Shown here one piece after another: positions 10,395 to 52,701 of a DNA stretch of 57,233 bases. The stretch spans positions 1 to 57,233 of the forward strand of contig JAUCBJ010007024.1 of assembly GCA_032718475.1 (NCBI GenBank), given 5' to 3'. The translations under genes and the position numbers were made by a program. The stretch comes from Nemertoderma westbladi. Its lineage: Eukaryota > Animalia > Xenacoelomorpha. The first letter of the stretch is position 1. Each line of letters opens with the position of its first letter. The notes under the pieces were generated by a model. That model saw only the letters and a list, made by a program, of their open reading frames with translations. It was not told the origin of the DNA and did no database searches.

Positions 10395-10412
10395 CAAGGA
10401 AAACCTGTTAAA

Positions 10413-25623: not shown

Positions 25624-26275
25624 TTAAAAAACATTACCTACCACGCCGGAACACTCGACTGCATGACTGTTCACAGGGGCGTGGACAACGAAATACATAG
25701 AGAGAGAGAGAGAGAGAGAGAGAACAGTCAGAGGAACACGCACAGGGGCGTCCGTCGGTAAATCTAAACTACCGCCGTCCCTGTGGATTCGCCTTCACCA
25801 AACACTGAAACAGCCAATAAGAAGTTAAGAAAGAGACGAGTTGGTTTGGTATACACGCTGTATACCTGGTATACCGGTATCCAGATATCAAATAGGCCCT
25901 AATATTACTGGTATTCCTGTGTTAAAGAGTTCCCAAGTACTGCATTACAGCATTACGCCTATATTCTATAGGCGTAATAACTGCAGTACAAAAGTATAAT
26001 ACAGTAATATAAATATACAGTAGGCCACCCTATATATATCAGCTAGTAATATTCTATTATTAGTAGTCGATGGTGGTACATGGTTTTTGGGTATATAATC
26101 CTGTAATCATATTATTTACTATTATTAGTATATAGTATATTATATGTATATGTTGATGGTTTATTTTACCAGTACGTACATACATGGTTAGTCTGCCGTT
26201 TTTTCTGTATTCCGATATTTTACAATCTACAGATTTGGATTTAGGCAGTAAAGAATTTTAAACCTTTATATAATA

Positions 26276-29200: not shown

Positions 29201-32200
29201 TTGCCACGCGGTATATAAGAGAACTTTTAACACCTTATCTAAACTGAAACAAGATCCATGGAAATTGGATCAAGCATTGAGATCAATGGGGAAACATATA
29301 AACAATGGTAAGTTTGTTCCATTTTCACATGAAAATCTTCCTGGTGTTAAAGGAAAAGTGTGGTATCTTCCAATATTCCCAGTGACTGAACCACAAAAAG
29401 GAAAGATACGTCTTGTTTTTGATAGTTCAGCAAAATACTTTGGCACTAGCCTCAATAAAGAGTTGCTGCAAGGTCCTGATATAAATAATCAGTTACGTGA
29501 TTGTATTGTCCGTTTCCGAGAGGGCAAGGTAGCCTTTCATGCAGATATTGAGGCAATGTATTACTGTTTTGAAGTCCGCCCTGAACATCGGGACTTCCAG
29601 AGATTTTACTGGTTTCGTAATAATGATCCATCAGGTGACTTGATTTCGTATAATAGTCGTGTCCATTTATTTGGAAATAGCCCCAGTCCTCCTATTTGTA
29701 TCACCGGTCTACGTCACACGATCAAACTTGAGGAAATACTCCCTCCACCTGAGGTAGTCGACTATATAGAAAATGGTTTCTATGTTGATGATGGATTGGG
29801 CAGCTCAGATTCCATTGAAACATGTATATCTATATTACAGCAGAGTATAAAGTTGCTCGGTAAATATAACATCCATTTGCATAAGATTGGTTCTAGTGAC
29901 CCTCAGGTACTTGAGGCACTGCCTCCTAATCTGCTTCTTCAATCTCCTTCTAAATTAGAACTCCAGGAGTCAAACATCCACAAAACCATTGGGATTACTT
30001 GGGATTCTATTCAAGATTCTTTCAATATAACAGTGACACTACCAGAGAAACCTTTTACAAAACGAGGGATCTTAGGCGTTATCAATTCGGTCTATGATCC
30101 AATTGGTGTTGCTCGTCCTGTAGTTCTTGCAGGACGTATTTTTCAACGAAAAGTAATTCCTCGAAAATCCAACCTTACTGATGACCGCAAGCACTGTGGC
30201 TGGGATGATAAACTCCCTGAACGATTTAGAGAGGAATGGGTGAACTGGATACAATCCTTAACAGCACTAAATTCCCTCTCAATCCCCCGAGCTTTCAAGC
30301 CTAAACACTTTGGAGAATTAAAATGCCAGGATATGCATATTTTCTGATGCCTCTGAACTTGGCATTGGGTGGGTTACTTATATACGGTCTGTGAACACTG
30401 AAAATGAAGTTTCTGTCATATTTGTATCAGGAAATTCAAAAGTTACTCCTGTCCTAGCTAACACTATGCCAAGACTAGAGCTATGTGCAGCAGTAGACGC
30501 TACCTTGGCCAGCCAAGATATTGTAGGGACATTACGAAGGAAACCAAATAATATTATCTTCTTTACTGATAGTCAGGTTGTATTGGGCTATCTTCGGAAT
30601 AGAACTGCCCACTATTTAAAATATATCACTCGTCGAATCCAAATCATCAAGAAGATAAGCCTGCCATCACAATGGTTATACGTGCCCACTGACTTGAATC
30701 CAGCTGATATTGCGTCTCGTCCGGCTACCCCAGAATCTTTACTCTCCTCTGAGTGGCTGCAGGGGCCCCACTTTCTTAGAGAGTCCATAATTCCAGAATT
30801 TGCTAATACCAGTGGACAGAGATATCAGGATCTTCCAGAGGAAATTAAAGAATCAGCCACAGAGATAAGAACTTTAAAAGTTATATCAGGCCCTACAACT
30901 TTGTTCTCCCATCTATATAGCAAATATAATTGGTGTACAATCCAGCGAATTGTCAAAATCGTATTAGGAGCCTGCAAAACCCTGCAAATTAAAGTATCAG
31001 GAACGGGAAGTTCAAATATTGATGATACCCTGGAAGGGGTGTGTAGTCATCTGGTTAAGGAATCCCAGAGGTCACATTTTTTAGATATTGTGAGGTCCCT
31101 CCAGGCAGGCAAAGAATTACCAGATAATCACCCCATTTCTAACCTATCACCCATTCTAAATTCAAAAGATATTATCCTTATTGGAGGTCGCCTTAAACAC
31201 TCTACACTTTTGTTCAACCAGCGCCATCCTCAGTTGCTCCCAAGTGACCACCCAATTGCGCAATGTATAATCCAACACTACCACCAGAAAAATGGTCATC
31301 TCGGTCAACAATTAACTCACTCGACCATTCGAGATGCTGGTTACCATATTTTCCGAGGGAAAATGTTAATAAAATCCTTTATCAAGGAATGTATACTATG
31401 TCAGCGACTGCGAGGGCTGATGCAGAACCAAAGAATGGCTGATCTTCCTCCAGATCGTATAGAGACCATTGCACCTTTTACAAGGACTGGAATGGATGTT
31501 TTTGGTCCATGGAATGTGACTGAAGGCATAACAACACGCAGAAACTCATCTTTTAAGAAAGCATGGGCACTCCTGCTTACCTGCATGGTGAGCCGTGCTG
31601 TGCATATTGAGCTTCTATGCTCCCTGGACACAGCAACTTTAAAAAATGCCCTTCGACGATTCTTAGGTCTTTGTGGCACCTGTGCAAAAGTATTCAGTGA
31701 TAAAGGGACCAACTTTGTTGGTGCCCATAACCAAGACATAGCTACTATTGACTATACCAGTTTAGAGAGGATGCTGGAATTGATGGGTGTAGAATGGGTC
31801 TTCAACCCACCCCATTCTTCACACTTTGGAGGAGTGTGGGAGAGGAAAATTAAAGAAATTCGTAGAATCCTGGACTCAACTGTTCTACTTGCAGGTCCGA
31901 GACTGTTAAGTAGAGATGAATTAAACACAGTCTTAGTGGAAGCTTCTTCCATCATCAATTCAACCCCACTATGGGCCACATCAAGTGATATCAATGACCC
32001 CCATCCCCTCAGTCCATTCATGCTTCTAACTCTGAAAGAGTCACCAACCCAAATACCTTTAGAAGACTTCTCTAAAGAAGACCCCAATGCCTATGGACAA
32101 CGTCGGTGGCAACGAGTCCAATATCTTGCTGACCAGTTTTGGGAACGTTATAAGAAGTTCCATCTAAGTTCCCTTCAAACCCGCCAGAAATGGAAGCGTA

Positions 32201-32433
32201 CCAAACCATCAATAGCAGTGGGTGATATGGTACTCCTTAGGGAAAAACAGTCTCGTCGGTGTCACTGGCCATACGGATTAATCAATGCAGTAAAAGTAAG
32301 CAAAGATGGTCTTGTGAGATCTGCATCTGTTAAAGTCATGAAGACTAATGCAAAGGGTGTAATAAAACCGCATCTGTTCGAACGGCCAATATCCAAAATG
32401 GTGCTGCTGAAACGAGCTGCTTTAGCTATATAA
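26276..32433 (+). pseudogene. E2 Gag-Pol polyprotein split by three -1 frameshifts (about 26520, 27975-28008 and 30342)
   Basis: Gag, knuckles CFRCQGHHYKDQC and CTTCKSTKHNSIMH, protease YAILDDQS, RT YVDD, RNase H HIF/SDAS..PRLELCAA..FTDS..NPADIASR, integrase GMDVFGP/SDKGTNF/GVWER. Confidence 0.93.
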
Positions 32434-32609
32434 AATTAAGCTACATAAAATTAACTCTATTGAACTATGTGAAGCGTACTTCTTCTAGAGATATCTTTTA
32501 TATCCGTGTAATATCGTGGTGCCTATTCCACCATATTGGTCTGTAGTTTAGGTCTACAACCCATATGGGCGTTTATTATTTGTTTCGGTATTATATACCG
32601 AGTGGGGAG

Positions 32610-33116
32610 TGTACTATTCTTGGAGAATAGTTAGTTAGTCATCAAACTAGTACCCATTTAGAGTGTTTAACATTAGCTAGTTATTTTCTGCAGTACCTAT
32701 TTAGAGTGTTTTACAACATTACCTAGTTATTTCTACAGTACCTATTTAGAGTGTTTTACATTATTAGCTAGAGATTTCTACAGTACCTATTGGGAGTGTT
32801 TATGTTTGTTAGAGGTTTACATACCGGTACCCTATGACTGGGGAGACGGCTTTGGTGTAAGATACAAACTCGGTTGAAGGTAATGTTTTTTGAAACAGGT
32901 GTTAACCATAGTACATAGATTACAGTTATCTGTTGATGGTACCGGTAAAGCGCAGCAGTATGGTGTGTTATATTATAAAGAACAATGACTCCCGGTCTGC
33001 CGGTACCGCATGTTTATTATACAGCCTTATTCGATAGATTTCATTTTCCATCTCCACTCTCGGTTGACCGCCCAGGTTCGGGGACCGACGCCATTCATTC
33101 ATATTAGGTGCGCCGT
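32610..33116 (+). repeat. E2 middle (3') LTR, interrupted about 18 bp before its end by E3
   Basis: Matches the E2 LTR up to GGTGCGCCGT, after which E3 sequence begins. Confidence 0.92.
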
Positions 33117-33244
33117 GTATAGAATTATATTCCCTAAATGCCGTGGATTTTCAAAATTTTATTTTTATTCGAATTAACTTTGTAAAGATTGCTTTGAGTT
33201 CTCATTCGTATTTGTTCTATCATTTGAAAGCCTATTGGTCAAGT

Positions 33245-33331
33245 GGTTCAGTAGCTCAGTCGGTAGAGCGTTGGAAATTATATGTGTAGTAGGTATTGAG
33301 TTCGAATCCTAGTAAGTGCGAATTATTTTTT
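33245..33331 (+). ncRNA. tRNA-derived Pol III cassette in the E3 LTR (not a functional tRNA)
   Basis: A box/D-arm TAGCTCAGTCGGTAGAGC, B box GAGTTCGAATCC and a T6 terminator. The acceptor and anticodon stems do not pair. Confidence 0.8.
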
Positions 33332-33384
33332 GTGCAGAATTTCAACTCATTTAAATTGACCGCTACAAATTAATTGCATTTGTC

Positions 33385-33663
33385 TGTACCAATGAGACTG
33401 TAGTTATTTGATTGTAACCAATGTCGTGCAAGTTATACATTAGCTGGACCAATAGCTATCTTTAAAACCTTGTTAGAACCTATAGAACAATCGAGAATTT
33501 TCTCGATTGATTGCAGCACAAATTTAGTATATAAAGGTGCGATTTGTTCATTAGTTATCACTCTCTCATTACTCTAACCATATTCGTATCTCTGAGTTAT
33601 CTAATATTTGTTTATTCTGTCATTAGTATTCAGATTACATTTTGTGTTATTATCTGCAATAAA
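33385..33663 (+). promoter_or_regulatory. E3 LTR Pol II promoter and polyadenylation signal
   Basis: Three CCAAT boxes spaced about 30 bp apart (about 33389, 33417 and 33449), TATATAAA at 33528-33535 and AATAAA at 33658-33663. Confidence 0.6.
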
Positions 33664-35902
33664 TTCAGAAATACCGCTATCTGCCTTTCTTTTTACCATG
33701 GATTCACTACGGTGAACAAACCTAAGGGACAGGATGGCCGGCTAGAGATCGGGCCGCAGCAATGAACGGGAACATCACAGGAATGTAGACGAGAGACAAC
33801 CCGCAATACCATCTTGAGTTATTCGCCCATCGCCTGAAAGGTTAGACAGCGTTCGACGCCTTGCTACCTAAGAGTAAGACCAAAGATCAAAAAGGTAGAA
33901 GTAGTGACACGCTGTGAGCCTAAAATTACATCTTAGGGACTGTACTGTCTTGATTCAGGAAAAAACCACAGTAGACCTTCACATTCCTACGGGGGGAGAG
34001 AGAGAGCGCAGGCAGATACTAGTACGCAGATAGGACGTAGGCACACCGGTACGAAGCATACAAATTGGTAGGGTGCAGCAAACTGTACGCCTAACTCTTG
34101 CTAAGTACAGGTGTGTGTGCGACTATTTGTAGTACAACGGTGTCCATTGCATTAGAACTTGTAGGCTAGGGGGGTTGCTGTGTTTTCACCTGAATTGGGA
34201 TTGTACCGTTCAGGCGGTAGGGCAGTTTACAACTAGGCGCAAATAAATTGAGGCTATTAGGGATACTAACATCTACCGTGTCCCCGCCAACGCCCTAATA
34301 GGAAGTTACCCGGACTACCTGGGTGACTAAAATTCTAGATAGGAGCCAGGATAGCTATTAGTAACAGTACGCCTACAGTAGTAAACTAACACATCTCTTC
34401 TTAGTATCAGGGACCTGGTACCTAAAATTGCCGAATTCTGGGCGTAGCATTAACCCTATGCCTGAATTTGAGTCCTGGAAATACGCAAGAGGGGAAGGAA
34501 CCTTATCATTCGTGAGTATTGGACCTACAAGTTACAAAATTAGAATATTCGTAAAATGCACACCGTACCCAGTAATTATATATGTGAAGGAGCAAAACTG
34601 TTTTTGACCGTTCAGAATTAACACACGCGCGTTAGAAATTATTTACACCTCAAAATATATAAAATTAACTTTTGTCCGTACTGTGCTTTGCCCGCTAGTT
34701 AGACATCTCCAAATCTCTGCCTGTGTACCTAGCTAGCGTCTCTTCGCCCAAACCATATAAATCACACCGCGGCAAAGTGTACGAGCCCCTTAGTCCGTCA
34801 GTGAGTCAGCCTGATTTTAGGATTCGCTGCGCGGGATTTTGTTTTATCGAAGTTTGTCTGCTCGTAGACTGTTTTCTGCCTCACCGGTTATAAGAGATCG
34901 ATACTGCAATATATTCGCTTACTTAGAGTTTACTGTTTTGGTGAGAAGGTCGGATTTATGATTTGATTTACAAACTTTACAGTAAGATATTGCAGGTATT
35001 GTTACCGTCTCTTCCAATAGTAGGAATGTGATTATTTTAACATATTTCCTAGAATAGTAGGAATGTGTGATTATTTTAACATATTTCCTAGAATAGTAGG
35101 AATGTGTTTTACTGAACTACGGTTCGGTAGGACTAAAGTTATTTGAAAATTTTGTATTTTGAGGTAAAAATTTATATTTGATTAGCTAAGTGCTAATTTT
35201 TGAAATAAAATTTGATTTGAACCGCGTGTAAAATATTTTTGGAATTGAATACCGGTGTTTAAAAGGGTTTAAATACCATATTGTACCGGTACAAAATTTT
35301 CGTAAAGTAAAACCTAACTCTTTTGTTTTTCAGGATTCAGAACTCATTTCTAGACTGTAACGGGAGCAAGACCGTGTTTAGCAAGTTTGGGAGATAGATA
35401 ACCCAACAACTTTGGTTGGGAAAATCGCGTTTCGTCCGCAACGTTAAAAACGGAAAGGTTCACGTCCGGTTTGTATCTGGGAATCTGTTTTTCTGGAGAA
35501 TTATTGGAGTGGGTGAGTTCGAAAAGTTGCATAAATAAGTTAGGCATTACCGTATTAGTTAAAATTATTGTGGGTTCCACTGTCTCAAGTATTTATGCAT
35601 TCCGTATGATTTCTTTGTTCATTGCTGAATTAGTCCGTATTATTGTATTTAATTTACCTTTTGATAACGCATATCGTTATCCGATTTATTTGTTATAAAA
35701 TTGGCCGCTAGGCTAATTTTATTATATACTTATTCCGTGACATTTATTTGCTGTAAAATTGGCCGTTTAGGCTAATTTTATCCATCTGCTATAAAATCGG
35801 CCGGTAGGCTAATTTTATATGACTGTAATTAGTACCGTTTAGATATAAATACGGTAAACTCGATACTTTGACACTCACTTTACTTGACTTACAACTACCG
35901 AA

Positions 35903-38900
35903 ATGAGTGACAAACAAGACTATACGAAGAATACACAAACCGACTATGACTCATGTGACGCGGATAAGTCAGCAGCGGAAGAACAACAGGGGAAGACTCG
36001 CGAGCCTACCGAACCTACACCGTGTGCGTCACCAGTACATCCAACGGGAGTACCGGATGCCGTAGTACGAGGCGACGGCAGGACCGAGGACTTTCTAACT
36101 GTTCCGCAACCTAGATACAGGGAAACGGAGATGGTAAGTTCAGTAGGAAGCCAGGAGAGCGTAGTTAGAAGCGTCGGCGGTTACATGGCGCATATTACCA
36201 GGAGTATTGGAGAAGGCCAACGCATATTAGACGAGTTAACCGCTCCGATGTCTCGGTTCGAGTTCTACACTCTACAGGTGAGAGTACAGAGTAAAGTATA
36301 TAAGTCCGTAGATAACCTAATTGGTCTACAAGATCTAGCTAGACAGAGACAGGATATGGACACTCAGCTTAGAATCCTCGAGAAACTAATGATCACTAGA
36401 GAGAAACTGATTCAGTTTAAGTCGACGATTAGGCAGATACAACAGGAACAAGCGGACCAGTTATTAGGTGAGTCGGTTTCGGACGAATTATTGCAACCCG
36501 AGGAAGAACAGGAACTGTACAGGCTAGATGGACAATTGAAACACCTGACGGATCACTTACGCATGTGCGGTGAGGACGTCGGAGATTGGGAAACCGTGCC
36601 GGAGGCTACGAGGGAAACTTCACTCGCACAAATCGAACTGGCACCGGGAACACTAAATCAATCACTGGTGAGTATTCGCAGCGAAATTGGCGAGGTGAGT
36701 ATGGCTACGTCAGAAATTGCTCGACAACAGCAGCTCTACAGACAACAACAGGAGATGGAGGAACAAACTGAACTGCTAATGGCACAAGCAGCAGTACAAG
36801 AAGAGAAACTACGTGTTGCGAATGTTGCAAGAATCTCTCATCTGCAAGAACAAGCCGAGTTGGAAGCAGCCGAGATGGAAAGATTAGAGTTGGACATTGC
36901 ACAACAGGCAGCGGCAGCGGCAGCGGCAGCGTCCGAGTTAGAGCGAAAAAGGTTAGCTTCAGAAGCGAGAACCGAAATGAAAAAACGGCAAATAAAGGCT
37001 CAATCAGCTATACGACAAGCGGAGTTCGAGGCGCAACAACAACAGACGGAACAACGCGAGAAGGAAGTTAAACTTCATTTCGAACTCGGGAAGAAGGCGA
37101 GAGAATTAGCCAACGCGAAGGAAGATCTGGATCTACAAGCCCGCGATCGATCGATGAGATCTCGTGACGGACATGATTTGGACCAGTTAGAGGTAAGGCA
37201 CCGTCAAATTCAGGAACGAATGAAGGAAGGAAGTGTAGGGGCACCTGGGCGAGAAAGACAACTAGTAAAGGACTTATGTCAAAGATTCCCTCGAGTAACT
37301 CCTATGTTTGCACCAGTTACGATTAAGGAACCTATTTCGATTGCTGGTAGTAGTAATATTTCTCCTATCCATGGTGCGACGGAACACAGGTTTGTTATTC
37401 CGGACAAGTTTACACCGCCAAGAGCAACGTCGTCGCCTATTCCGAAAGTCAAGGTAAGTAACCCGCCGATTACAGATCGTAGTAGTTTGTTGACCAGACC
37501 TGCACTACTGACGACTAAACAGGTGAGTTCACCTTCGACACCAAAACTCGTTACGCACTACACGTACCCAATGACGTTTAGGCCTACAAAGCCTTTGGAT
37601 TCAAACGCTGTAGTCCGACCACCGGTTCAGTTTACATCGCAATCTACGACTTCGAGGAAGACTTGTGAGCCTACCGAACAACGGAGACCAGTGGATACGC
37701 GACCGTTCAACCAGTTTACATCGCAATCTACGACTTCGAGGAAGACTTGTGAGCCTACCGAACAACGGAAACCAGTAGACGATGTTCCGAGACGGAATGT
37801 TAGGATTCGAACGGCGGAACGGACTCGAGCACGTCGACCACCGTATCCAGGTGACAGTAGTACTTCGAGCGAGTCGGATTACCCGGAACGCGAGGTATTT
37901 AGAACAGGAGCGGCCGACAAATGTAAACGTGAGCGTTCGGATAATTCATTTATCGACAATCCTCCACAGAATACGCCAACACAAAAGGCGTTACAACCAA
38001 CAGACGCGATCAGTACACAACAATTCGCCGACATTCTGCGACCAGTTGTCAATAAGTTGGCCCAGATTGAGGAACGCTTGGAGGAAGTTGAAACCGATAG
38101 TTCGAGGAACACCGAACTTGAACACAATAGCCACCCGAAGGATCCGCAAAGACCAATACCTTCGAGAAACACTTCTTATCAAGAAAAAGCGCCAAGAAGG
38201 GAGAACATCAACCAGGTTGCCAACCAAGGACGCGAAACTTTGAACGTGGCCGAGGAAATAGCGAAATTCGCAGCTAGACAAGGATTGCCGGTACAACAAC
38301 CACTGAAGTTTTCCGGTAGCTCAAAACACTGGCATACTTTCATAGACTATATCGAATCTCAGATCGCCGTGTGCGCCTTTACATCACGGGAGAAGTTTAA
38401 TTACCTGCTTCAAACGTTGTCAGGAGAACCTAAACGTTTGGCGGAGACCTTCGTTGGTGTACCGGACGCTTTCGAACTAGCGTACGATCGTTTGACCTCG
38501 ATCTACGGAGGCACAGTCAGTATGGCCAGGTCAGTAATAGAGGAACTCGGTAAGGGAGGGGCTATCACTAAACCCGTCGACTTATTAAAACTGGCCGACG
38601 AGATAAAGAACGCTATCACTACTTTAAGATCCATTGGACAACTCGACTACGGGAATACCCCTACAGTCCTATTAAAGATCATAGGACGACTCCACCATCG
38701 ACTTCGTCGGGAGTGGAGAAAGATCGAATACCAGCGGGAAGAGCGGGGTGGATTCTTAAAACTAGAGGATGTGTACCTTTTGATATCCAGGGAAGCAGTT
38801 GTAGAAACACGATCCAACTACACTGACCAGCACATCGTAGCAGAAGGGATCACCTTGCCATCCTCCAACCGACAAAAACCCCAGACAACATCCACTAAGA

Positions 38901-41900
38901 CGGCCACTTACGCCACACCGACGGAATCACGACAATTCTCGGACGGTAGTAGGGTATCTGCGCCCATTGGGACAAAACAGACGAGACAACAACTCAGTAC
39001 CGACTTCAGCGGCTGCCAATACTGCGAGCATTTAGGCAAGCGGTATATCGGTCACAAGTTGCGAGGTTGTCGACAATTTCGCGAGTTAAACTCGGAAGAA
39101 CGACGGCTGCAAATACGGCCATTGGACTCTTGTAGGCGGTGTACGCGACACGGACACATCCGTAAAGATTGCCCAAATACCGACACTTGTCCATCCTGTG
39201 GACGCAACCACGACGGTCTGCTCCACACAGACAGCCACACGCCGACAAAACGCTTCGCCAGGGAACACCCGGAAGCAGCAGCGAGATGTGATGCGGCCTA
39301 CAGAAAACGAGAATCGAAAACGACTCCAACCTTCGTGACCCATATTGAGGATTGCTTCTCAGAACAATCCGGATCGTCGGACGAAGAATCAGAAGACGAC
39401 GACGTATATTCGGATGGAGATGAACAGCCATCGATCGCGCTTCTGACTACTGACCAACTGAAGGGATTCAGTGTAATTCCGATTAAGATTACTGGCACAA
39501 AGGGAAGCAAGAGAATCTACGCGATTCTAGATTCAGCCTCATCTCACAGCTACGTGGATGAAAAGATAGCTGACGTAGTGACGGATCTTAAACAAGGTAA
39601 GCGCGTCAGTTATACCGTAAGTAGTATGCACGGACAGCGTGCAATACCAGTGACACGAGTTAAGTTGGACTTAGACTCTCTTCTTCCAAAATCGCAACAC
39701 AGCGAGAGGGAGAGGTCTTTGTTACCCTTTAAAGATCTAACCTTTGCGGCCACGAAGGACTTTAGTAACCTACTAGGTCCAGTGCCGGAACAATCTCTAG
39801 AGGACCGTAAGTATTTCAGACACCTTGGTGTACCCGAATGTCCTGTCAATTATAGATCGGTAGCCATGCTGATCGGGACAGACCAATTCAACCTACATCA
39901 GGTGTGGGAAACCAGACCATCGGCAGTTGTAGCGGGAAACGCATACGCCTGTAGAACGCCGATAGGGTGGTATACTCGAGCGCCTGTGCGCACATTAGAC
40001 ATAAGTGACGAGGAAGATGTACAAAGTACATGTAGTTTATTAACTACAAATTCAATTCATTCCTTCTCACACGACGTGGACCATACTACCTTACAGACAA
40101 AACACAACAGACGTGTAACTAGTATGATAAGTCACAAGGAGCAGCTAATTCACCAGGTGAGTTTAGAACTTGGGAAGAAGGCGAGTCAGCCAGAGATTCC
40201 ATCGACGACAGATGATAACGCCGGAAGACTTGCGAGCCTTTCTACACCAGACATATCGCCAGACGGTCAACCAGACACGTTACTAGACAGCCAACCAGAC
40301 ATTTTGCCAGACATATCACAAAATGTTCTACCAGACACTAGTGACATATTGACAAACAGTAAAGCCGCAGTTTCTCTATTGGAGCGGCCTTCTATTGACA
40401 AACAACCAGATACGTTACCAGACGTATCGCCAGACACATTACTAGACAGTCGACTAGACACTAGTAACGTACTGACAAATAGTGAAGCCGCTGTTTCCCT
40501 ATTGGAGCGGCCTTGTATTGACAAACTACCAATTTTGACACACTTGAGCAACCATAAGCACGGTGAAACCTCATGTATTACAGATGTGGGTAGTACCTAC
40601 GCTAATGTAAATACAGGTGTTACTCTGCGCTCAAGAGACATACCGAACTTGCAACCTACGGTGAGACCTGGGATTAATGTCGGCAGAAAAATAAGTTTAC
40701 CGAAACCTGCTGACCCCATAGAGTTCAAACCACCATTAACGATCGACTTACAAAGTACCGACAATCAAGGTAAGAAGACGAAGAAGGACAAATTACTTGT
40801 AGACCCGGACGGATCAACAGTCAACAAGGGAATACTTACCGGCGGACCCGTGGGCCCTTCTAGTAATTCAAAACCTTCCAAAATCTCCATTGACTTACCT
40901 GATGACGTCACAAATACTCACGTCGACCGGATTGTAAACTTAACAGACTCTTGGTCAAACGCTTGCCGAAAGTTAGCGTGGATTGTACGTTTTGTACAAT
41001 ACGTTAAAGGCAAACGCGACTTTACACGTCGACTTACATTGGCTGAGATTGACAGGTGTGAGATTAAATTAATTCGCCATTACCAACTGCGATATTTCGC
41101 GCGCGAATTCACATCTATAAATCAAGGTCAACCAATCAAGTCGTCACCAATACTGAGTTGGAGTCCGATTATTTATAATGGCTTAATTTGTCATAAATCT
41201 CGGCTTCAAAACATTGACTTTAACACAAACTTTAGGTACCCAATAATAATACCGCAACATCACGAACTACAACGTGCAATGATACTGGACGCACATTTAC
41301 ATCTGAAACACGCTGGAAGACACCACTGTCTTTCCTACTTACGTACAAGATTTGTATTAATTAGACCCAGTAAAGCGTTAAGTTCAGTGACACGTACGTG
41401 TATTATTTGTAAAAAGGTACATTCTAGAATAGGTACCCAAGAAATGAGTGAACTACCACAAGCACGACTTCAAGCATTCAGACCACCTTTTACAGAGACT
41501 GGAATTGATTGCTTTGGTCCCATACATACGAAACGTGGACGTATACTAGTAAAACGCTGGGGACTGATTTTCACATGTATGTCCAGTAGGGCAGTTCACA
41601 TTGAACGTGTGATGGATCTTTCCACCAACGCGTTTATACTAGCACTGCGGCGATTTATCGCTAGACGCGGACTAGTGAAATGCTTGTACTCAGACCAAGG
41701 GACAAACTTTGTTGGTGCTCGAAATGAGATTGCTAGAGCCTTTAAGAAATTAGATCATGATCAAATCTCGAACGAACTACAACCTCACAAGATTGTTTGG
41801 AAGTTTAATCCTCCAGATAGTCCATGGAGAGGCGGAGTCTGGGAGAGATTGATTAGATCTATAAAGACGGCAATGGCAAAGGTCATTCCAGTAAACCACA

Positions 41901-42430
41901 TATTGACAGACGACCAACTGACAACACTGTTTGTTGAAATCGAGGCAATACTAAATACTAGACCAATAGTATTAGTACCCGATGACAAACAATCTCAGTT
42001 TGCTTTGACACCGGCACACCTGCTTATGCAGGCACCGTCTACATTAATACCTATTTCAATTCCAACAGAAAGCGATAGCTATGGTAGAAAAGCGTGGAAA
42101 ATCACGCAACTACTAGCTAACAAATTCTGGGAAATATGGCAAAACCATTATTTGCCCTCTATTTCTGCCAGAACAAACTGGTACAATAACACCCGCGCAT
42201 TAAAGCCGGGAGATCACGTGCTGTTAGCAGAAGTGAATCTAAAAAGACGCTTCTGGATAACAGGTGTAATTCTAGCCACACATCCATCTATGGATGGAGT
42301 GACAAGAACTGTGACAGTACGGACAATTGACGGTCGTACAGTAGACAGACCGACTCAACGTCTCGTACTTCTTGAAGAGACTCGTAACGAGTCTGGAGAC
42401 TACAAATCTCCACCTAATACTAGTAAATAA
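35903..42430 (+). CDS. E3 Gag-protease-integrase polyprotein (2175 aa), with no RT or RNase H
   Basis: Coiled-coil N-terminus, gag FSGSSKHW..F and YLLQTLSGEP, three Cys/His knuckles, protease YAILDSAS..TPIGW, a low-complexity spacer of about 310 aa, then H..LKHAG..CIIC, GIDCFGP, SDQGTNF and GVWERLIRS. No YxDD, QGP, DAS or PRLEL motifs. Confidence 0.93.
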   Translation: MSDKQDYTKNTQTDYDSCDADKSAAEEQQGKTREPTEPTPCASPVHPTGVPDAVVRGDGRTEDFLTVPQPRYRETEMVSSVGSQESVVRSVGGYMAHITRSIGEGQRILDELTAPMSRFEFYTLQVRVQSKVYKSVDNLIGLQDLARQRQDMDTQLRILEKLMITREKLIQFKSTIRQIQQEQADQLLGESVSDELLQPEEEQELYRLDGQLKHLTDHLRMCGEDVGDWETVPEATRETSLAQIELAPGTLNQSLVSIRSEIGEVSMATSEIARQQQLYRQQQEMEEQTELLMAQAAVQEEKLRVANVARISHLQEQAELEAAEMERLELDIAQQAAAAAAAASELERKRLASEARTEMKKRQIKAQSAIRQAEFEAQQQQTEQREKEVKLHFELGKKARELANAKEDLDLQARDRSMRSRDGHDLDQLEVRHRQIQERMKEGSVGAPGRERQLVKDLCQRFPRVTPMFAPVTIKEPISIAGSSNISPIHGATEHRFVIPDKFTPPRATSSPIPKVKVSNPPITDRSSLLTRPALLTTKQVSSPSTPKLVTHYTYPMTFRPTKPLDSNAVVRPPVQFTSQSTTSRKTCEPTEQRRPVDTRPFNQFTSQSTTSRKTCEPTEQRKPVDDVPRRNVRIRTAERTRARRPPYPGDSSTSSESDYPEREVFRTGAADKCKRERSDNSFIDNPPQNTPTQKALQPTDAISTQQFADILRPVVNKLAQIEERLEEVETDSSRNTELEHNSHPKDPQRPIPSRNTSYQEKAPRRENINQVANQGRETLNVAEEIAKFAARQGLPVQQPLKFSGSSKHWHTFIDYIESQIAVCAFTSREKFNYLLQTLSGEPKRLAETFVGVPDAFELAYDRLTSIYGGTVSMARSVIEELGKGGAITKPVDLLKLADEIKNAITTLRSIGQLDYGNTPTVLLKIIGRLHHRLRREWRKIEYQREERGGFLKLEDVYLLISREAVVETRSNYTDQHIVAEGITLPSSNRQKPQTTSTKTATYATPTESRQFSDGSRVSAPIGTKQTRQQLSTDFSGCQYCEHLGKRYIGHKLRGCRQFRELNSEERRLQIRPLDSCRRCTRHGHIRKDCPNTDTCPSCGRNHDGLLHTDSHTPTKRFAREHPEAAARCDAAYRKRESKTTPTFVTHIEDCFSEQSGSSDEESEDDDVYSDGDEQPSIALLTTDQLKGFSVIPIKITGTKGSKRIYAILDSASSHSYVDEKIADVVTDLKQGKRVSYTVSSMHGQRAIPVTRVKLDLDSLLPKSQHSERERSLLPFKDLTFAATKDFSNLLGPVPEQSLEDRKYFRHLGVPECPVNYRSVAMLIGTDQFNLHQVWETRPSAVVAGNAYACRTPIGWYTRAPVRTLDISDEEDVQSTCSLLTTNSIHSFSHDVDHTTLQTKHNRRVTSMISHKEQLIHQVSLELGKKASQPEIPSTTDDNAGRLASLSTPDISPDGQPDTLLDSQPDILPDISQNVLPDTSDILTNSKAAVSLLERPSIDKQPDTLPDVSPDTLLDSRLDTSNVLTNSEAAVSLLERPCIDKLPILTHLSNHKHGETSCITDVGSTYANVNTGVTLRSRDIPNLQPTVRPGINVGRKISLPKPADPIEFKPPLTIDLQSTDNQGKKTKKDKLLVDPDGSTVNKGILTGGPVGPSSNSKPSKISIDLPDDVTNTHVDRIVNLTDSWSNACRKLAWIVRFVQYVKGKRDFTRRLTLAEIDRCEIKLIRHYQLRYFAREFTSINQGQPIKSSPILSWSPIIYNGLICHKSRLQNIDFNTNFRYPIIIPQHHELQRAMILDAHLHLKHAGRHHCLSYLRTRFVLIRPSKALSSVTRTCIICKKVHSRIGTQEMSELPQARLQAFRPPFTETGIDCFGPIHTKRGRILVKRWGLIFTCMSSRAVHIERVMDLSTNAFILALRRFIARRGLVKCLYSDQGTNFVGARNEIARAFKKLDHDQISNELQPHKIVWKFNPPDSPWRGGVWERLIRSIKTAMAKVIPVNHILTDDQLTTLFVEIEAILNTRPIVLVPDDKQSQFALTPAHLLMQAPSTLIPISIPTESDSYGRKAWKITQLLANKFWEIWQNHYLPSISARTNWYNNTRALKPGDHVLLAEVNLKRRFWITGVILATHPSMDGVTRTVTVRTIDGRTVDRPTQRLVLLEETRNESGDYKSPPNTSK

Positions 42431-43092
42431 TTAGGAGTTTACAAATAGATTTCCACGTACCTGTACACTGTAGTAAGGACAGCGGTAGAATTCCATTGTC
42501 TTTATATGTGAACATTGAGGGTAGTACCCTTATGTGTCACATAGGAGCGGGATTTGTAGGTATAAGAAATGGAATTCTACTTGGAACTCACAATATTGAG
42601 ACATTTTCGAAATTTTAGACAATCCATTTGGATTTGAAAAATTTTTAAAATTTTCTCCAGTGAATAGATTTCAGGGTACAGTCGGGTGGAACTTAAAATT
42701 AGAGAAACAAGAGAGGAAGACTTGCGAGCCTTTCTTAAAATTTTAATTAAATTTTACACGGTCTTGTTTCAATAAGTTACGTCAAATAATAGACTCCCCT
42801 ATATTTATTACTAATTCTTGACTGCTTATTTTCTGATAATAGTTTGGGATCAAAAAGTGAGTATTTTAGACTCACAGCCAGTTTAGCCCAAATTCGTTTT
42901 TTATTTCGGCAAAAAATTTTAGATAAGAAGCAGCGTGTCATTAAAGAAACCTTAGATCTTAGGCTATGGGTAGGAGGTTAGAGCGTTGTCGAGCCAAAAG
43001 GGCAGACGAAACTCTCACGTCTCCTCACAACTAACTACAAACTCTGTTGTATTCCCTCTAGTAGCAATGATTATGTAACTACACCTCTAATT

Positions 43093-44830
43093 ATGGAGAA
43101 AGGGATACAAGGAGAGCCGAGATGGGGATATGATATCCAAGAGGAGGCAGCAGCGCCATTCGAAAGATTTGGAGCCAAGGACTACACTATATTCGGTATA
43201 AAGGAATTATCGGAAAGTACAGCGAAACTCGCAAAGACTAAATATGACAACCCTTCTACAACTCCGACGCTCAGTGTAATGCCTTTACTCGAGCAGGATT
43301 TAGTATATTTCGAGACGTGTATCTTCGCTGTGCGGGATCTCTTATCGAAAGACCATCTATGTTTACATTGTTACCCTATGAAGGAGAACGTATCGTGGAG
43401 ATTACGGATGAATCACGGCAGACGCGCGCGCCTATCGGTCACCTTGGTGATGATTTCGAAGTAACTACTACGATCGCCGACGATCCTTTAGAGGAACTTC
43501 TTGAGATAAAAAGGAACCTCCCGAAGAAATCTCAGACGGAGATTCGACAACTTGAAGCAACAGATGATATAGTTTGTATACAACCTTCAGAAACCTACCA
43601 ACCCATAGACCCAGATGATTACGATTATAGTGTGGGAGGAAGCGCTCGACCGATTGGAGATCTTATATACGAACGAGTGTGGTACCCTGCCAATACGATG
43701 TGTAGTAAATGTGGCGTCGCTGGACATCATATGACAAAGTGCAGTGGAAAGCACATTACTACGACTCAGCTAATCTGTGGATGGTGTGGGGATCAAGGGT
43801 CTCATACCTTTTATACTTGCTGGAGATTTATGGCTCAATGTACTTACTGCAATATAAAGGGCATCGAGCATCTGAATGCCAACTAAGATATATACCTTAT
43901 GAACACGAATCTGTAAAACTCGTGAGGAAATTATTTGATGAGTGGGAAGATTTAGCCGACGAACATGTATCGGCACAAAGAAGACGGTTTCCGATGAGGG
44001 CGCATCTTGGATTTTGGGCGGTAAATCCCCAGACGATGATGTCGGAAGGATATATCTCCGCTATGCCCCAATATGACGAACTTATCGAGGTAGTCGATAT
44101 TTTGCCCCACGACAGCGGATTTCGAGTAGTGCGCGAGTATCTACTACAGATTCACCCGGATAACAAAAACACGTGGAATTTTCAGAAAGTCGTTAATCGC
44201 ATTACTTATGGTGAATTCGATCGTTTCCGAACTGAAAAATGGAATAAAGGAGCTTGGTTAACCGTCGCATGGGCGTACCGAGCCGCGTTTTACCATAAAC
44301 GTATACGAGCGAGCGTATTCGAGGAAGAAGAGGTCCTAGAGGCGACAAATATACCAGCCACTCCGGTTGCGCCGTCTGCACGTCACCCTCGGGAGGACGG
44401 ACAGGGTAGGATCATACGGGTCCAGAAAGTGGGCCAACAGTTAAAGAAGTCTATTAATATAGAAGAACGCAGGGGAGTTGAGCCGACCATTCGAGTTACT
44501 CGGGATACGGTATCGCTTCCTAGAGAACCAGTAGGAGGATCGGGACATACACCAGCTGATCAACAGGGGGCGCAAGCTACTCTTGGGTCTGCGTCGTCCG
44601 CTTCTCGCGCGTTCCCAGACGTTCTACCAACTGTAGTGACAACTGATCGGTCACGAGGAATCGGTCGAGGTTTTGGGATGCTAAATAGACGAATTTGCGA
44701 GGAAATGGTCGCACCGTCTCTCAACGTCCAAACGAAACCAGTGACTCGCCCCACGAGTCCCATATCGCGAGCAAAGTCACCTGTGCGCAGTTTTCGAGGA
44801 CGCGGCAGGGCTCGATCAACTAAGCGATAA
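43093..44830 (+). CDS. E3 accessory ORF of about 580 aa if two -1 frameshifts are bridged; three CCHC zinc knuckles and an RG-rich tail
   Basis: Three overlapping ORFs in successive -1 frames. Knuckles CSKCGVAGHHMTKC, CGWCGDQGSHTFYTC and CTYCNIK/GHRASEC, the third spanning a frameshift. An upstream CTAAC..polypyrimidine..TAG acceptor lies at 43031-43061. Confidence 0.7.
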
Positions 44831-45032
44831 AAGGGAGGGCAAGGGTGGACGGAAGACTCGTGAGCCTTTCTTATGATTTTGTGATTTATTTGAATTTATA
44901 TTTATATTTGTGTTTATTCCGAACTTATGCAATTTGTATTGTTCCGAATTTATGAAATTTAGAAAGTTTATATTTAGAAGGAACTTATATTTGAAAGATG
45001 ATATTATTTAGATTTATGTTTCATATTTGAGA

Positions 45033-45099
45033 TGCAAAGGAGTTTATATTATTCTAAACTTGTGCTGCACAAGTTTAGAATAATATAAACTCCTTTGCA
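45033..45099. repeat. Perfect 67-bp palindrome (33-bp arms, 1-nt centre)
   Basis: TGCAAAGGAGTTTATATTATTCTAAACTTGTGC-T-GCACAAGTTTAGAATAATATAAACTCCTTTGCA. Confidence 0.97.
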
Positions 45100-45517
45100 G
45101 TTTATATCTATATTTAGTAAAGATTTATATTTGTAAGAATTTATATTTTATATTTGTGATTATTCCGAACTTATGCAATTTATATTGTTCCGAATACTAT
45201 GCAATTTATATCTTATAAGCAGTATTTGTATTTACAGTGAAATAGAAATAATTGTTTGAATTTATGCAATATTGAAATGCAATAGATTTATATTGGTGAA
45301 TTTAATTTAGATTTATATTGTACTTACTTAGTAAAGCCTTAAATACGTAAAGTTTGAATTTGTAATTATTTTGTATCGAATCATTATGTAGAAAGGAAGT
45401 ATTGTTTGAAATTTAATTTGTAAATATGTAAGTACGCCCTAAGTATTCTATAGTTTGATTGATTATTGGTGAAAACCGTATATTTTATGCACGATAATAT
45501 CCTGTTTTCATGGAGCG

Positions 45518-47420
45518 GTATAGAATTATATTCCCTAAATGCCGTGGATTTTCAAAATTTTATTTTTATTCGAATTAACTTTGTAAAGATTGCTTTGAGT
45601 TCTCATTCGTATTTGTTCTATCATTTGAAAGACTATTGGTCAAGTGGTTCAGTAGCTCAGTCGGTAGAGCGTTGGAAATTATATGTGTAGTAGGTATTGA
45701 GTTCGAATCCTAGTAAGTGCGAATTATTTTTTGTGCAGAATTTCAACTCATTTAAATTGACCGCTACAAATTAATTGCATTTGTCTGTACCAATGAGACT
45801 GTAGTTATTTGATTGTAACCAATGTCGTGCAAGTTATATATTAGCTGGACCAATAGCTATCTTTAAAACCTTGTTAGAACCTATAGAACAATCGAGAATT
45901 TTCTCGATTGATTGCAGCACAAATTTAGTATATAAAGGTGCGATTTGTTCATTAGTTATCACTCTCTCATTACTCTAACCATATTCGTATCTCTGAGTTA
46001 TCTAATATTTGTTTATTCTGTCATTAGTATTCAGATTACATTTTGTGTTATTATCTGCAATAAATTCAGAAATACCGCTATCTGCCTTTCTTTTTACCAT
46101 GGATTCACTACGGTGAACAAACCTAAGGGACAGGATGGCCGGCTAGAGATCGGGCCGCAGCAATGAACGGGAACATCACAGGAATGTAGACGAGAGACAA
46201 CCCGCAATACCATCTTGAGTTATTCGCCCATCGCCTGAAAGGTTAGACAGCGTTCGACGCCTTGCTACCTAAGAGTAAGACCAAAGATCAAAAAGGTAGA
46301 AGTAGTGACACGCTGTGAGCCTAAAATTACATCTTAGGGACTGTACTGTCTTGATTCAGGAAAAAACCACAGTAGACCTTCACATTCCTACGGGGGGAGA
46401 GAGAGAGCGCAGGCAGATACTAGTACGCAGATAGGACGTAGGCACACCGGTACGAAGCATACAAATTGGTAGGGTGCAGCAAACTGTACGCCTAACTCTT
46501 GCTAAGTACAGGTGTGTGTGCGACTATTTGTAGTACAACGGTGTCCATTGCATTAGAACTTGTAGGCTAGGGGGGTTGCTGTGTTTTCACCTGAATTGGG
46601 ATTGTACCGTTCAGGCGGTAGGGCAGTTTACAACTAGGCGCAAATAAATTGAGGCTATTAGGGATACTAACATCTACCGTGTCCCCGCCAACGCCCTAAT
46701 AGGAAGTTACCCGGACTACCTGGGTGACTAAAATTCTAGATAGGAGCCAGGATAGCTATTAGTAACAGTACGCCTACAGTAGTAAACTAACACATCTCTT
46801 CTTAGTATCAGGGACCTGGTACCTAAAATTGCCGAATTCTGGGCGTAGCATTAACCCTATGCCTGAATTTGAGTCCTGGAAATACGCAAGAGGGGAAGGA
46901 ACCTTATCATTCGTGAGTATTGGACCTACAAGTTACAAAATTAGAATATTCGTAAAATGCACACCGTACCCAGTAATTATATATGTGAAGGAGCAAAACT
47001 GTTTTTGACCGTTCAGAATTAACACACGCGCGTTAGAAATTATTTACACCTCAAAATATATAAAATTAACTTTTGTCCGTACTGTGCTTTGCCCGCTAGT
47101 TAGACATCTCCAAATCTCTGCCTGTGTACCTAGCTAGCGTCTCTTCGCCCAAACCATATAAATCACACCGCGGCAAAGTGTACGAGCCCCTTAGTCCGTC
47201 AGTGAGTCAGCCTGATTTTAGGATTCGCTGCGCGGGATTTTGTTTTATCGAAGTTTGTCTGCTCGTAGACTGTTTTCTGCCTCACCGGTTATAAGAGATC
47301 GATACTGCAATATATTCGCTTACTTAGAGTTTACTGTTTTGGTGAGAAGGTCGGATTTATGATTTGATTTACAAACTTTACAGTAAGATATTGCAGGTAT
47401 TGTTACCGTCTCTTCCAATA
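45518..47420 (+). repeat. E3 3' LTR (possibly truncated at its right end)
   Basis: A near-identical copy of 33117-35019 that ends ...TTCCAATA and joins the E2 3' UTR with no TSD. Confidence 0.9.
45646..45732 (+). ncRNA. tRNA-derived Pol III cassette, 3' LTR copy
   Basis: Same A box, B box and T6 as 33245-33331. Confidence 0.8.
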
Positions 47421-48037
47421 TGGTGCCTATTCCACCATATTGGTCTGTAGTTTAGGTCTACAACCCATATGGGCGTTTCTTATTTGTTTCGGTATTATAT
47501 ACCGAGTGGGGAGTGTACTATTCTTGGAGAATAGTTAGTTAGTCATCAAACTAGTACCCATTTAGAGTGTTTAACATTAGCTAGTTATTTCTACAGTACC
47601 TATTTAGAGTGTCTTACAACATTAGCTAGTTATTTCTACAGTACCTATTTAGAGTGTTTTACATTATTAGCTAGAGATTTCTACAGTACCTATTGGGAGT
47701 GTTTATGTTTGTTAGAGGTTTACATACCGGTACCCTATGACTGGGGAGACGGCTTTGGTGTAAGATACAAACTCGGTTGAAGGAAATGTTTTTTAAAACA
47801 GGTGTTAACCATAGTACATAGATTACAGTTATCTGTTGATGGTACCGGTAAAGCGCAGCAGTATGGTGTGTTATATTATAAAGAACAATGACTCCCGGTC
47901 TGCCGGTACCGCATGTTTATTATACAGCCTTATTCGATAGATTTCATTTTCCATCTCCACTCTCGGTTGACCGCCCAGGTTCGGGGACCGACGCCATTCA
48001 TTCATATTAGGTGCGCCGTCGCCGCGACCCCAGGATA
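47421..48037 (+). mobile_element. Second E2-family 3' end (3' UTR, PPT and a complete 524-bp LTR at 47514-48037)
   Basis: Repeats 32517-33116 with several substitutions and continues to CCCCAGGATA. Confidence 0.92.
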
Positions 48038-48804
48038 ATTTATAAAATAACTATCTGTTTACACGGCAATGAATATATTTCTGAATATTATTTGAAGGTG
48101 GCCCTATAATATTCGAAGCGCAATATAAATAATTATAGCAATTTACTGCAGGGTTTCTGATACGTTGTTACGAGGTGTCTACTGTTTATTTTGTGAAAGT
48201 TATGTTTATGTCACCGGCAATCAGATTATACGTATATAGAATTCGCTTCCTCTTCCTTCCTATTTCCGATTCGCTTCCACCTGCACTGAATTCCAGGACT
48301 TGGTTGCAGCTGCATCAACCTCGTGATGTGCAGCAACCTTCTCCGCTCGTAAGCTACTGTATCCCCACCTGATATCACCGAGGAAAGAATGTTGCTGATT
48401 TTCTTTTTTACTTTCTTTTTTCTTTTTTTCTGGACACACAGACCTATCCTCAGTGTAATCCCATGCTTTATTTTTTATATTGGTGCGGTTGGGTTAGGCC
48501 ATTCCGTACAGTACGGCATTACTATGCTATGCGTAGCGTACACACTTTTTGACCAATTATGTGACCATGTTAATGGCTATTATCGTTATGTTTTTATTTT
48601 AGTACAATTGTCAATTTTACATTTCAGAATTGTAAAAACTGTATTTTGGCATCCGCCAATATTTTGTTTAAAAACGAGTAGCTACAGTAGTAAATAAATA
48701 CTTAGCTACTTTGACTTTCACTTAAAATTACTAGCTACCATGACTCATAATTTCATCCAGACAAATATATAATTGAGAATTAAATTATATTTTTTATTTT
48801 TTTT

Positions 48805-49455
48805 TACTAGCTAATAAATAGCCCTAAAGTTAACACAAAATCAAAATTACTAGCTACCATCTTACTGTCAGAAGGTCAAATATTTGTTCTAGAACAAAAA
48901 CCCCATAATAAAAGGAATTTTTACAAGAAAAAAGACTCAATTTTTTTTCAATCAAAATTACTAGCTACCATCTTACTGTCAGAAGGTCAAATATTTGTTC
49001 TAGAACAAAAACCCCATAATAAAAGGAATTTTTACAAGAAAAAAGACAGTCATTTTTTTTTCAATCAAAATTACTAGCTACCATCTTACTGTCAGAAGGT
49101 CAAATATTTGTTCTAGAACAAAAACCTCATAATAAAAGGCATTTTTACAAGAAAAAAGACTGTCAATTTTTTTTAAATTTTTCAATTATAATTCTTTTCA
49201 CTAGCTAATAAAACGTACTAGTTAACACAAAATCAAAATTACTAGCTACCATCTTACTGTCAGAAGGTCAAATATTTGTTCTAGAACAAAAACCTCATAA
49301 TAAAAGGCATTTTTACAAGAAAAAAGACTGTCAATTTTTTTTAAATTTTTCAATTATAATTCTTTTCACTAGCTAATAAAACGTACTAGCTAACACAAAA
49401 TCAAAATTACTAGCTACCATCTTACTGGCAAAATGTCAAATATTAGTTCTAGAAT
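48805..49455. repeat. AT-rich tandem repeat with a core of about 112 bp and a higher-order unit of about 170 bp
   Basis: CAAAATTACTAGCTACCATCTTACTGTCAGAAGGTCAAATATTTGTTCTAGAAC occurs four times plus a partial fifth copy. Confidence 0.9.
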
Positions 49456-49672
49456 AAAAATTAAGACTGAATACGCACAGTACAATCGCAATGCTAACTG
49501 TATTGTGAATACAATACAGTAAACTGTATTGTATTATTATGGAATGTACTTGCTTATCCATCCATAGCAACTGTTTTGAACATGCGAAAAGCGGGTTCCG
49601 GGAATATAACCGAGTTGAAAACCCGCTTCTTACTATTAAAAAGCGGACAAATAACTTCTGGGTGGGTAATAA

Positions 49673-51077: not shown

Positions 51078-52390
51078 ATGTAATGTAATGTAATGTAATG
51101 TAATTGCACTCCAAATAATTGCACCGACAAATAAAATAATTAATTATTTAAAATTAATCTTAATGACATACATATTCACAAAATGAAATTGAATTAGACC
51201 TTTAATTAAACAATTATATGTATGGAGGGAGAAGATAACCCAGGCAATGTTGCACTTACGAGCGTATCTCTATTGGAATTAAGTAAAAATATTGCAAACT
51301 AAAAAAATAAAATGGTAAAACACGGTCAGTCATTATGAACAGAGAAAATATAAAAAAAATAAAAATCAAAATCAAATCAAAATACGAGGCGGGGTATAAT
51401 GTGTGCATATTTAAACAAAATGACACAAGTGACTAAAATCAATATGACGTATATGGCAATTAAAAATATACAAATTACGTGCATTAACGGCATCTGAGGG
51501 CAAGGAATTCCACACGGATACTATACGGCTGGCAAAACGATTTCTGACAACGACTAGCCTGCTAGGCTGTGCAAACAGTTTCCTGTTATGGCCTCGCAAA
51601 CCTTGCCGTTGCACATGCGAGAAAAAATCGTTAAAATGAAGGTCAATGTTATTGTGACAAATATTATAAACCATACGGATATCAAAAATAATTCGCCTAA
51701 CTTCTAATGGTTGGAGTTTCAAGTGTATTAATCTATTAGAGTAACTGTTATCTATGTGTGTTAACTGACATCTTGAAAACAATCGTCTGGTGAAATATCG
51801 TTGGACGCGCTCAACCAATTTTATATTAAAGATTTGGTGAGGAGACCAAACCACAGTACAATACTCTAACAGTGGGCGAACATACGCCTTATAAGCCGTA
51901 ATAAGTACGTTGACATTAGAAGTGTGGAAGCACCTAAATAATATATTGCACATTTTATACGCCTTGGATACTTGTTGGCTGCAGTATTTGCTGAAACGCA
52001 GATTTTTGGTAACGATAATACCTAGGTCCTTACAACTCTCCTTGAGTTCTAGAATAGAACCGTTGAGAGTGTACTCACTCGGTGTGCGTGTACCAAGGTG
52101 AAGTACATGACATTTGTGAGCAGCGACATTGAGCTGCCAGGTTTTACTCCAACTGGCTAATCTATCCAACGCATTTTGAATGTTTGCCGGATTATTACTG
52201 TTTCCATATAATTTTAAATCGTCAGCAAATAGTTTGCAACCTACATTTGTAAATTCCGAAGGCAAATCGTTTACAAAAACTAGGAACAAAATCGGCCCCA
52301 AGACGCTTCCTTGGGGTGTTCCTGATTTGACGTCAACATAATCTGAGTATTTGTATCCAACTAAAACACGTTGACTACGATTAGCTAAGC
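51078..52390 (-). mobile_element. 5'-truncated CR1-group LINE with an (ATTAC)n tail
   Basis: RT motifs GTPQGSVLGP, FADDLKLY, KDLGI, YVRPLLEY and RGHN. The 3' UTR ends in (TGTAA)5 on the + strand. Confidence 0.92.
51411..52390 (-). CDS. CR1-like ORF2 C-terminal RT fragment (frame intact, 5'-truncated)
   Basis: An uninterrupted frame runs from RSQRVLVG to the stop codon. Confidence 0.85.
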
Positions 52391-52701
52391 GATTACAGGC
52401 TGACAGGTGTATAAACACAACCTGACATGACAACAGCTTCCATTAGACTGTTAGATGTAGTCTCAGACCAGACCACAGGCCAGCAGGCTGACAGACTCGT
52501 TGGCTACAGTCTGACAGTTGACAGTAGGCCTACCGCGCTACCGGTACTGTAATAGGCTACTACAGTAATAACTACCTCAGTACTGCGGCTGCGGGTATTG
52601 TTACTTTGAGGACCGTCAGACCGTCCCTTAAAACACTTACCGGTATATATATTTATCAGTTTATTTATGTGTTTATTATTATGTAATTTATTTATTATGT
52701 G

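Follow-up and report, generated by a model that had tools for sequence, protein, structure and literature searches.

Within a 57,233-nt stretch of Nemertoderma westbladi DNA (assembly GCA_032718475.1, contig JAUCBJ010007024.1; hereafter the window), we describe a BEL/Pao retrotransposon, element B (33117-47420; 14.3 kb), whose single Gag-protease-integrase frame contains neither reverse transcriptase (RT) nor RNase H. It is the third BEL/Pao element of the window, the others being C (4863-13446) and A (from 25093). Our preferred interpretation, to which we assign a probability of roughly 65%, is that element B represents a likely high-copy family that likely borrows RT from a related BEL element. 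As a variant of non-autonomous BEL/Pao it is apparently new and long-evolved.

Domain organization of element B

The open reading frame (ORF) of element B runs for 2175 amino acids (aa) without an internal stop and has the following organization (PR, protease; IN, integrase).

35903..42430, + strand: Gag-PR-spacer-IN polyprotein, 2175 aa (ORF, Pfam and own profiles)
38309..39238, + strand: Gag core (DUF1759) and three BEL-type Cys-His motifs (Pfam E 1.5e-10, weak zf-CCHC match; motifs by eye)
39470..39973, + strand: aspartic protease, catalytic D at 39530 (own profile E 2.5e-15)
39974..40936, + strand: low-complexity spacer at the usual place of RT/RNase H, 321 aa, aa 1358-1678
40937..42379, + strand: integrase with HHCC, D-62-D-50-E and DUF5641 (own profile E 5e-158)

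Profiles for the protease, RT-RNase H (563 positions) and integrase were built from homologues and run with filters off against 2411 six-frame pieces of the window. Together with Pfam, which recognized DUF1759, a weak zinc knuckle, Integrase_H2C2 and DUF5641, they confirmed the unbroken frame with protease (LDSAS, at aa 1209) and integrase motifs that had been read in an initial annotation of this DNA. The integrase triad is D1869-D1931-E1981, with a 62/50 spacing that is the same in 62 of 71 pattern-matching relatives (90 examined), and this integrase retains 74 of the 88 conserved columns, a tally identical to that of the RT-coding element A (the 90 references retain at least 88%). A sequence search returned no relative of this integrase with a solved structure. 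Assignment to BEL/Pao is supported by the succession, in a single ORF, of a DUF1759 Gag, three Cys-His motifs, protease and then integrase with DUF5641, by the direct long terminal repeats (LTRs) that flank the element, and by the integrase itself, for which 87 of 91 matches carry PF05380 (the Pao peptidase family) and the DDE spacing agrees, the accompanying tree having been built without a non-BEL outgroup.

Over all six frames of 33117-47420, the RT-RNase H profile was silent even at E<=10 and Pfam reported neither RVT_1 nor Peptidase_A17 at E<=0.1; the identical profile detected the neighboring elements A (E 9e-109) and C (E 2e-72), which served as positive controls. Element B thus lacks, as had been proposed, the RT and RNase H that an autonomous BEL/Pao element carries between protease and integrase. 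The spacer noted at this place was also recovered: it is low in complexity, rich in S, D, T, P and L, free of Trp, and contains a 115-nt internal duplication. The spacer is open solely in the frame of the ORF, with 22 and 26 stops in the other frames, and none of 20000 base shuffles was open. Unlike deletion derivatives among the homologues, it retains no recognizable stub of RT or RNase H.

Element B in other samples

The internal region of element B was present in five runs from 4 studies, one of the five possibly being the source sample itself, and the contigs of X1, X3, X4 and X5 were analyzed. The spacer was covered by contigs in runs of 4 studies, and the summed depths of the all-spacer and protease bins were 55k and 50k in X1, 53k and 49k in X3, 444 and 743 in X4, and 2.5 and 5.0 in X5. 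The protease-spacer junction was bridged by an X5 contig (record 27, 39554-40078) and the spacer-integrase junction by an X4 contig (record 20, 40715-41119). Loss of RT and RNase H looks like a family-wide trait combined with an intact partial ORF, which is the pattern of a semi-autonomous family as read from contigs rather than whole copies. The earlier claim that the loss is not a unique deletion or misassembly therefore stands, with the spacer junctions bridged by contigs; the helper or partner that was postulated with it was not found among the relatives searched.

Single X3 contigs of element B reached depths of 12362 and 10304, compared with 119 for a contig of A, which suggests an approximately hundredfold excess of B over A by contig depth, a quantity that is no copy number; the family is likely high-copy. 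More than 700 variable places were tallied in the contigs of element B. None of the 12 best-supported indels (52 further) falls inside the ORF, and among 21 ORF variant sites, drawn from the 40 listed (676 further), 10 are synonymous, the expected share being 0.30. Run X5, which is labelled as a second organism, contains element B at ~96-99% identity, reflecting a label error, a mixed sample or a shared family.

LTRs and predicted self-priming

The LTRs and the sequences adjoining them contain the following features.

33117..35019, + strand: 5' LTR, 1903 nt, tips (G)TATAG...TTCCAATA, not TG..CA
45518..47420, + strand: 3' LTR, 1903 nt
33245..33330, + strand: tRNA-like cassette of RNA polymerase III type (A box, D-stem, B-box core, T run), identified by eye; recurs in the 3' LTR
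33530..33535, + strand: TATAAA, candidate promoter (motif scan)
33658 and 34242, + strand: AATAAA, candidate poly(A) signals (motif scan)
33979..33990, + strand: predicted self-primer, a 12-nt exact complement of the bases just after the 5' LTR
35020..35031, + strand: predicted primer-binding site, no TGG; two further copies of its 11-nt core (35057, 35096) lie in a hairpin array
45033..45099, no strand assigned: perfect 33-nt inverted repeat in the AT-rich 3' untranslated region (UTR)
A 25361-25376, C 5326-5336 and metagenome locus L001 2186-2195: self-priming-like complements elsewhere

The LTR pair differs at 2 of 1903 positions (33231 and 33438), as the initial annotation had estimated, and LTR identity begins at 33117, one base inside the start given there (33116). 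The G that precedes TATAG in the 3' LTR copy also occurs in X4, which shows a loose end at 33117. The cassette at 33245-33330 was considered as a genuine tRNA and rejected, being called by neither ARAGORN nor Rfam; it could serve as an insulator or as a small-RNA promoter.

No TGG-type tRNA primer site was found in A, B or C. Instead, part of each LTR is exactly complementary to the bases following the element's own 5' LTR. This complement measures 16 nt for A (Markov-null P <0.0002), 12 nt for B (P 0.0012) and 11 nt for C (P 0.0046), and complements of those lengths occurred in 0 of 1358, 2 of 2059 and 0 of 1398 internal windows. Element B accordingly shares with Tf1-like elements both the missing tRNA site and the LTR complement to the site after the 5' LTR. 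Since L001, whose LTR ends were placed by eye, also has a 10-nt complement (P 0.002), the pattern suggests that a self-priming-like complement is a trait of the whole BEL lineage (A, B, C and L001).

Introns and accessory region

Downstream of the polyprotein gene lies a second coding region, which would be reached by splicing.

33841..35333, + strand: intron 1 (GTTAGA...CTAAC...TTTCAG), GT..AG, joint 33838->35332 (one X4 contig and splice motifs)
35513..43061, + strand: intron 2 (GTGAGT...ACTAAC...CTCTAG), GT..AG, joint 35511->43061 (one X4 contig and motifs)
43093..44830, + strand: accessory coding region; CCHC-like knuckles lie near 43700-43880 and the tail is basic

In both introns the donor, the branch point and the pyrimidine tract are of textbook form. 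The splice joints were confined to run X4, where they represent spliced RNA or retro-copies of it, and were absent from the contigs of X1, X3 and X5. Intron 1 takes out the predicted primer together with its binding site, and intron 2 takes out the entire polyprotein gene, ending 31 nt upstream of the ATG at 43093 that opens the accessory ORF. In the present copy the accessory region consists of three overlapping frames, that is, it is disrupted. Homologue searches with it were empty and its single-sequence fold had a pLDDT (predicted local distance difference test score) of 35; the leads were a weak Pfam match to zf-CCHC_4 and an Atlas value of 0.84 to zf-CCHC clusters. Its zinc-knuckle product is probably RNA-binding.

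Insertion site and neighboring elements

Element B lies between two copies of the same part of element A.

32517..33116, + strand: left flank, comprising the end of the A 3' UTR, a purine tract and a truncated 3' LTR
47421..48019, + strand: right flank, the corresponding stretch of A once more, with 7 differences between the two flanks

Element A (25093-33116 and 47421-48037) has every domain but is frameshifted; its LTRs end in ..GGATA, there is no target-site duplication (TSD) at its outer ends, and its two 3' pieces derive from different copies. We considered whether the flanks of element B represent a giant TSD of 600 nt, an idea that the 7 differences in 600 nt, compared with 2 in 1903 in the LTRs, rule against. 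Contigs of A in X1 and X3 seemingly extend beyond 33116 without B, which we read as pointing to a variable B insertion.

Element C has 700-nt LTRs that are 100% identical, TGT..ACA tips and the TSD GTCTA. Its frame ends just after the RT motif YVDD and resumes in the integrase, the end of RT and the RNase H being deleted, so that C is a second RT-defective element in the window, apparently freshly inserted. It is nested in a small inverted-repeat element (4771-4862 and 13451-13512, with GGCCATTTTAAA..CGTTTAAA arms). Elsewhere in the window, two RVT_1 fragments on the minus strand (16926-17576 and 51411-52442) are probably pieces of non-LTR retrotransposons, and an open frame at 55758-56810, which has an RPEL repeat and lies within a GC-rich stretch, is probably a host exon. 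Minisatellite arrays (24651-25110 and 48792-49460; units of ~28 nt and 111-168 nt) flank the A/B nest.

Relatives of element B and alternative explanations

The best relatives of element B among the 91 and 150 matches listed are ~31-43% identical, mainly over the integrase, and scans of metagenome and viral contigs with the element B protein found no relative. Among BEL integrases, element B forms a long branch that pairs weakly with C (support 85, quick tree).

A number of observations weigh against a semi-autonomous family supplied with RT by a related element. The protease retains just 7 of 12 conserved columns, with 11 covered (the minimum among references is 0.75). The ratio of nonsynonymous to synonymous changes (dN/dS) is ~0.47 from just 21 selected sites (p=0.068), a value that is only suggestive of selection on gag, protease and integrase. 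Contig depth is blind to the difference between dispersed and tandem copies, and the integrase bins are deeper than the spacer, by up to ~1.6-fold in X1 and ~3-fold in X5, so that a minority of RT-bearing close relatives may exist. No helper or bipartite partner was found in protein collections or in the window elements A and C; the latter were tried as matched helpers and rejected, sharing no LTR or leader sequence with B (best E 0.11) and having integrases only 32-38% identical. The present copy of B is without a TSD, its tips are not TG..CA (C, by comparison, has both canonical tips and a TSD), and the two flanks are mismatched at 7 sites in 600, far above the LTR-based expectation (P 4.5e-6). 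Because of the missing TSD and the flank mismatch, this copy cannot demonstrate a working element B integrase, and the locus is best read as two A copies joined through B, by recombination or assembly. Each splice joint is represented by one contig, from a run labelled DNA by guess, and the candidate TATA box lies ~450 nt upstream of the predicted primer, a putative 5' end of the RNA. Finally, an RT-less, integrase-keeping, 9-copy BEL/Pao element has already been published in herring (PMC8233318), so that the label of an undescribed system given to element B initially was overstated.

The most serious alternative, which we regard as unlikely, is that element B is an ordinary deletion derivative passively copied by a close autonomous sister, in which case its proteins would be unneeded and its ORF would survive as a consequence of the youth of the family. 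Proteins of this kind do recur: of 203 proteins with a protease followed by an integrase, 21 including B cover fewer than 100 of the 563 RT-RNase H positions, and the 20 others (of 202) fall into 7 clusters, a count that is inflated by the deliberate fetching of cluster members and that may include gene-model artefacts. One of them, P0003, reflects a young deletion: each of its ends shows a short matching stretch, and 99%-identical DNA keeping RT pieces exists; we rejected its interpretation as a spliced form since the junction is that short matching stretch and no intron. Another cluster, P0058, comprises at least 7 cichlid BEL proteins from 4 species with one common in-frame RT/RNase H deletion junction and is possibly another RT-less family, known from proteins. 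The herring precedent, the plain deletion with identical LTRs in element C and the nonsignificant dN/dS of element B point in the same direction. Nevertheless, all of the RT-depleted homologues retain stubs of the start of RT and/or the end of RNase H, whereas element B has none and carries 321 aa of unrelated open frame instead. Moreover, the protein collections yielded no close RT-bearing sister, and none of the 24 contig loose ends listed (797 further) marks RT at either spacer junction.

An improbable alternative is a reciprocal bipartite system, in which a partner without Gag or integrase of its own would give RT-RNase H and depend on B for the remainder. Although B retains the exact complement of such an RT-only partner, and cooperative systems are known in wheat (PMC9744471, PMC11302176), no such partner was seen in the window, where A has all domains and C is without RNase H. 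Amplification without reverse transcription, through tandem or segmental duplication or LTR-circle recombination with gene conversion preserving LTR identity, we consider very improbable; the tips, the missing TSD and the chimeric flank of the present copy fit this explanation, as does the indifference of contig depth to tandem arrangement, but the LTR end coincides exactly with the start of the predicted primer site and the A contigs mentioned above seem to pass the insertion point without B. That the element is an artefact of assembly, or that this copy alone carries the deletion, is largely refuted despite the joining of two different A copies at the locus: the spacer occurs in runs from 4 studies, two of the runs contain contigs that bridge a junction, and the frame of the spacer is open throughout.

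Proposed mechanism and significance

If element B is indeed a family that borrows RT, its unspliced RNA would make the polyprotein and be packaged in particles that also contain helper Gag-Pol. The 12-nt LTR stretch, paired after the 5' LTR, could then be cut by helper RNase H and prime copying as in Tf1, since an element without RNase H would require a helper for self-priming of this type. The integrase of B itself would subsequently process the unusual LTR tips, and the doubly spliced RNA, which lacks the primer site and whose joints come from one run, would encode the zinc-knuckle accessory protein. Under this scheme RT-RNase H might be the function most easily borrowed, and a tip-specific integrase might be retained, because priming is tRNA-free and encoded in cis. 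More tentatively, and with some doubt, we extend this proposal to an old and abundant BEL/Pao lineage that would be an obligate RT borrower with tRNA-free priming, a private integrase and a spliced zinc-knuckle protein that unites its RNA with the RT of a distant helper, tRNA-free priming being lineage-wide.

If this is true, element B outsources the copying step alone, and tRNA-free priming is general in its BEL lineage. A successful family that has dropped RT and RNase H alone separates the functions that can be shared in trans from those that cannot, and families of this kind would escape surveys and trees based on RT. In addition, primer-like pairing was present in all 4 of the BEL elements examined, which suggests that tRNA-free priming occurs outside the Tf1/sushi group.

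Comparison with known systems

Autonomous BEL/Pao elements belong to the Belpaoviridae. Those of fish and marine invertebrates resemble element B in having one Gag-PR-(RT-RH)-IN ORF (RH, RNase H) with DUF1759, Cys-His motifs and DUF5641, and the integrase of B falls among them, but B is without RT-RH and sits on a long branch. The mouse intracisternal A-particle (IAP) element I-delta-1 is reportedly also non-autonomous, with an in-frame Gag-integrase fusion mobilized in trans by a known helper; unlike B, it is said to be an endogenous retrovirus with a simple deletion. BEL/Pao LTRs are given as 0.2-1.2 kb long in PMC3118150, and those of B are longer.

Plant non-autonomous LTR families likewise have an intact partial ORF. 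The semi-autonomous Gypsy families of wheat keep Gag or Gag-protease and lose integrase as well (PMC9744471, PMC11302176), and RLG_Sabrina_SA, RLG_WHAM, RLG_Quinta and TR-GAG are high-copy, long-lived and partner-mobilized (PMC9744471, PMC11302176, PMC13570524). In these families RT and integrase are lost jointly, and LTR tips and tRNA site are held in common with the partner, whose ends they mimic. Element B, by contrast, has kept its integrase and has LTR tips of its own; a tRNA site is absent, no partner is known, and A and C share neither LTR tips nor primer site with it.

The predicted priming of B resembles that of the Tf1/sushi Gypsy elements, in which an LTR stretch pairs over 11-16 nt with the site after the 5' LTR and replaces the tRNA, the Tf1 primer consisting of the initial 11 nt of the RNA and being cut by the element's own RNase H (PMC7175516). 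The pairing geometry is the same, whereas the superfamily differs, B is without RNase H and its primer is a putative RNA 5' end. A description of BEL/Pao self-priming was not found, which is weak evidence with most subscription papers and Repbase outside the scope of the search; likewise, no study of the mechanism of RT-less BEL/Pao elements was found within the same scope, and the supplementary BEL/Pao catalogue of PMC3118150 could contain similar elements.

A close known counterpart is the BEL/Pao element at the herring TSHR locus, which lacks the entire RT, has an intact integrase core and is accompanied by 8 further copies at >98% identity (PMC8233318). It is 5.2 kb long, with 470-bp LTRs and a 1180-aa ORF that retains part of the Pao peptidase domain, and the family is mentioned there in passing, without a mechanism. 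Both elements are BEL/Pao, have a single long ORF, are RT-less, retain integrase and are multi-copy, as appears likely for B from its contigs. Element B differs in its size of 14.3 kb, its 1.9-kb LTRs, the absence of any RT/RNase H remnant, its new spacer and its spliced accessory ORF.

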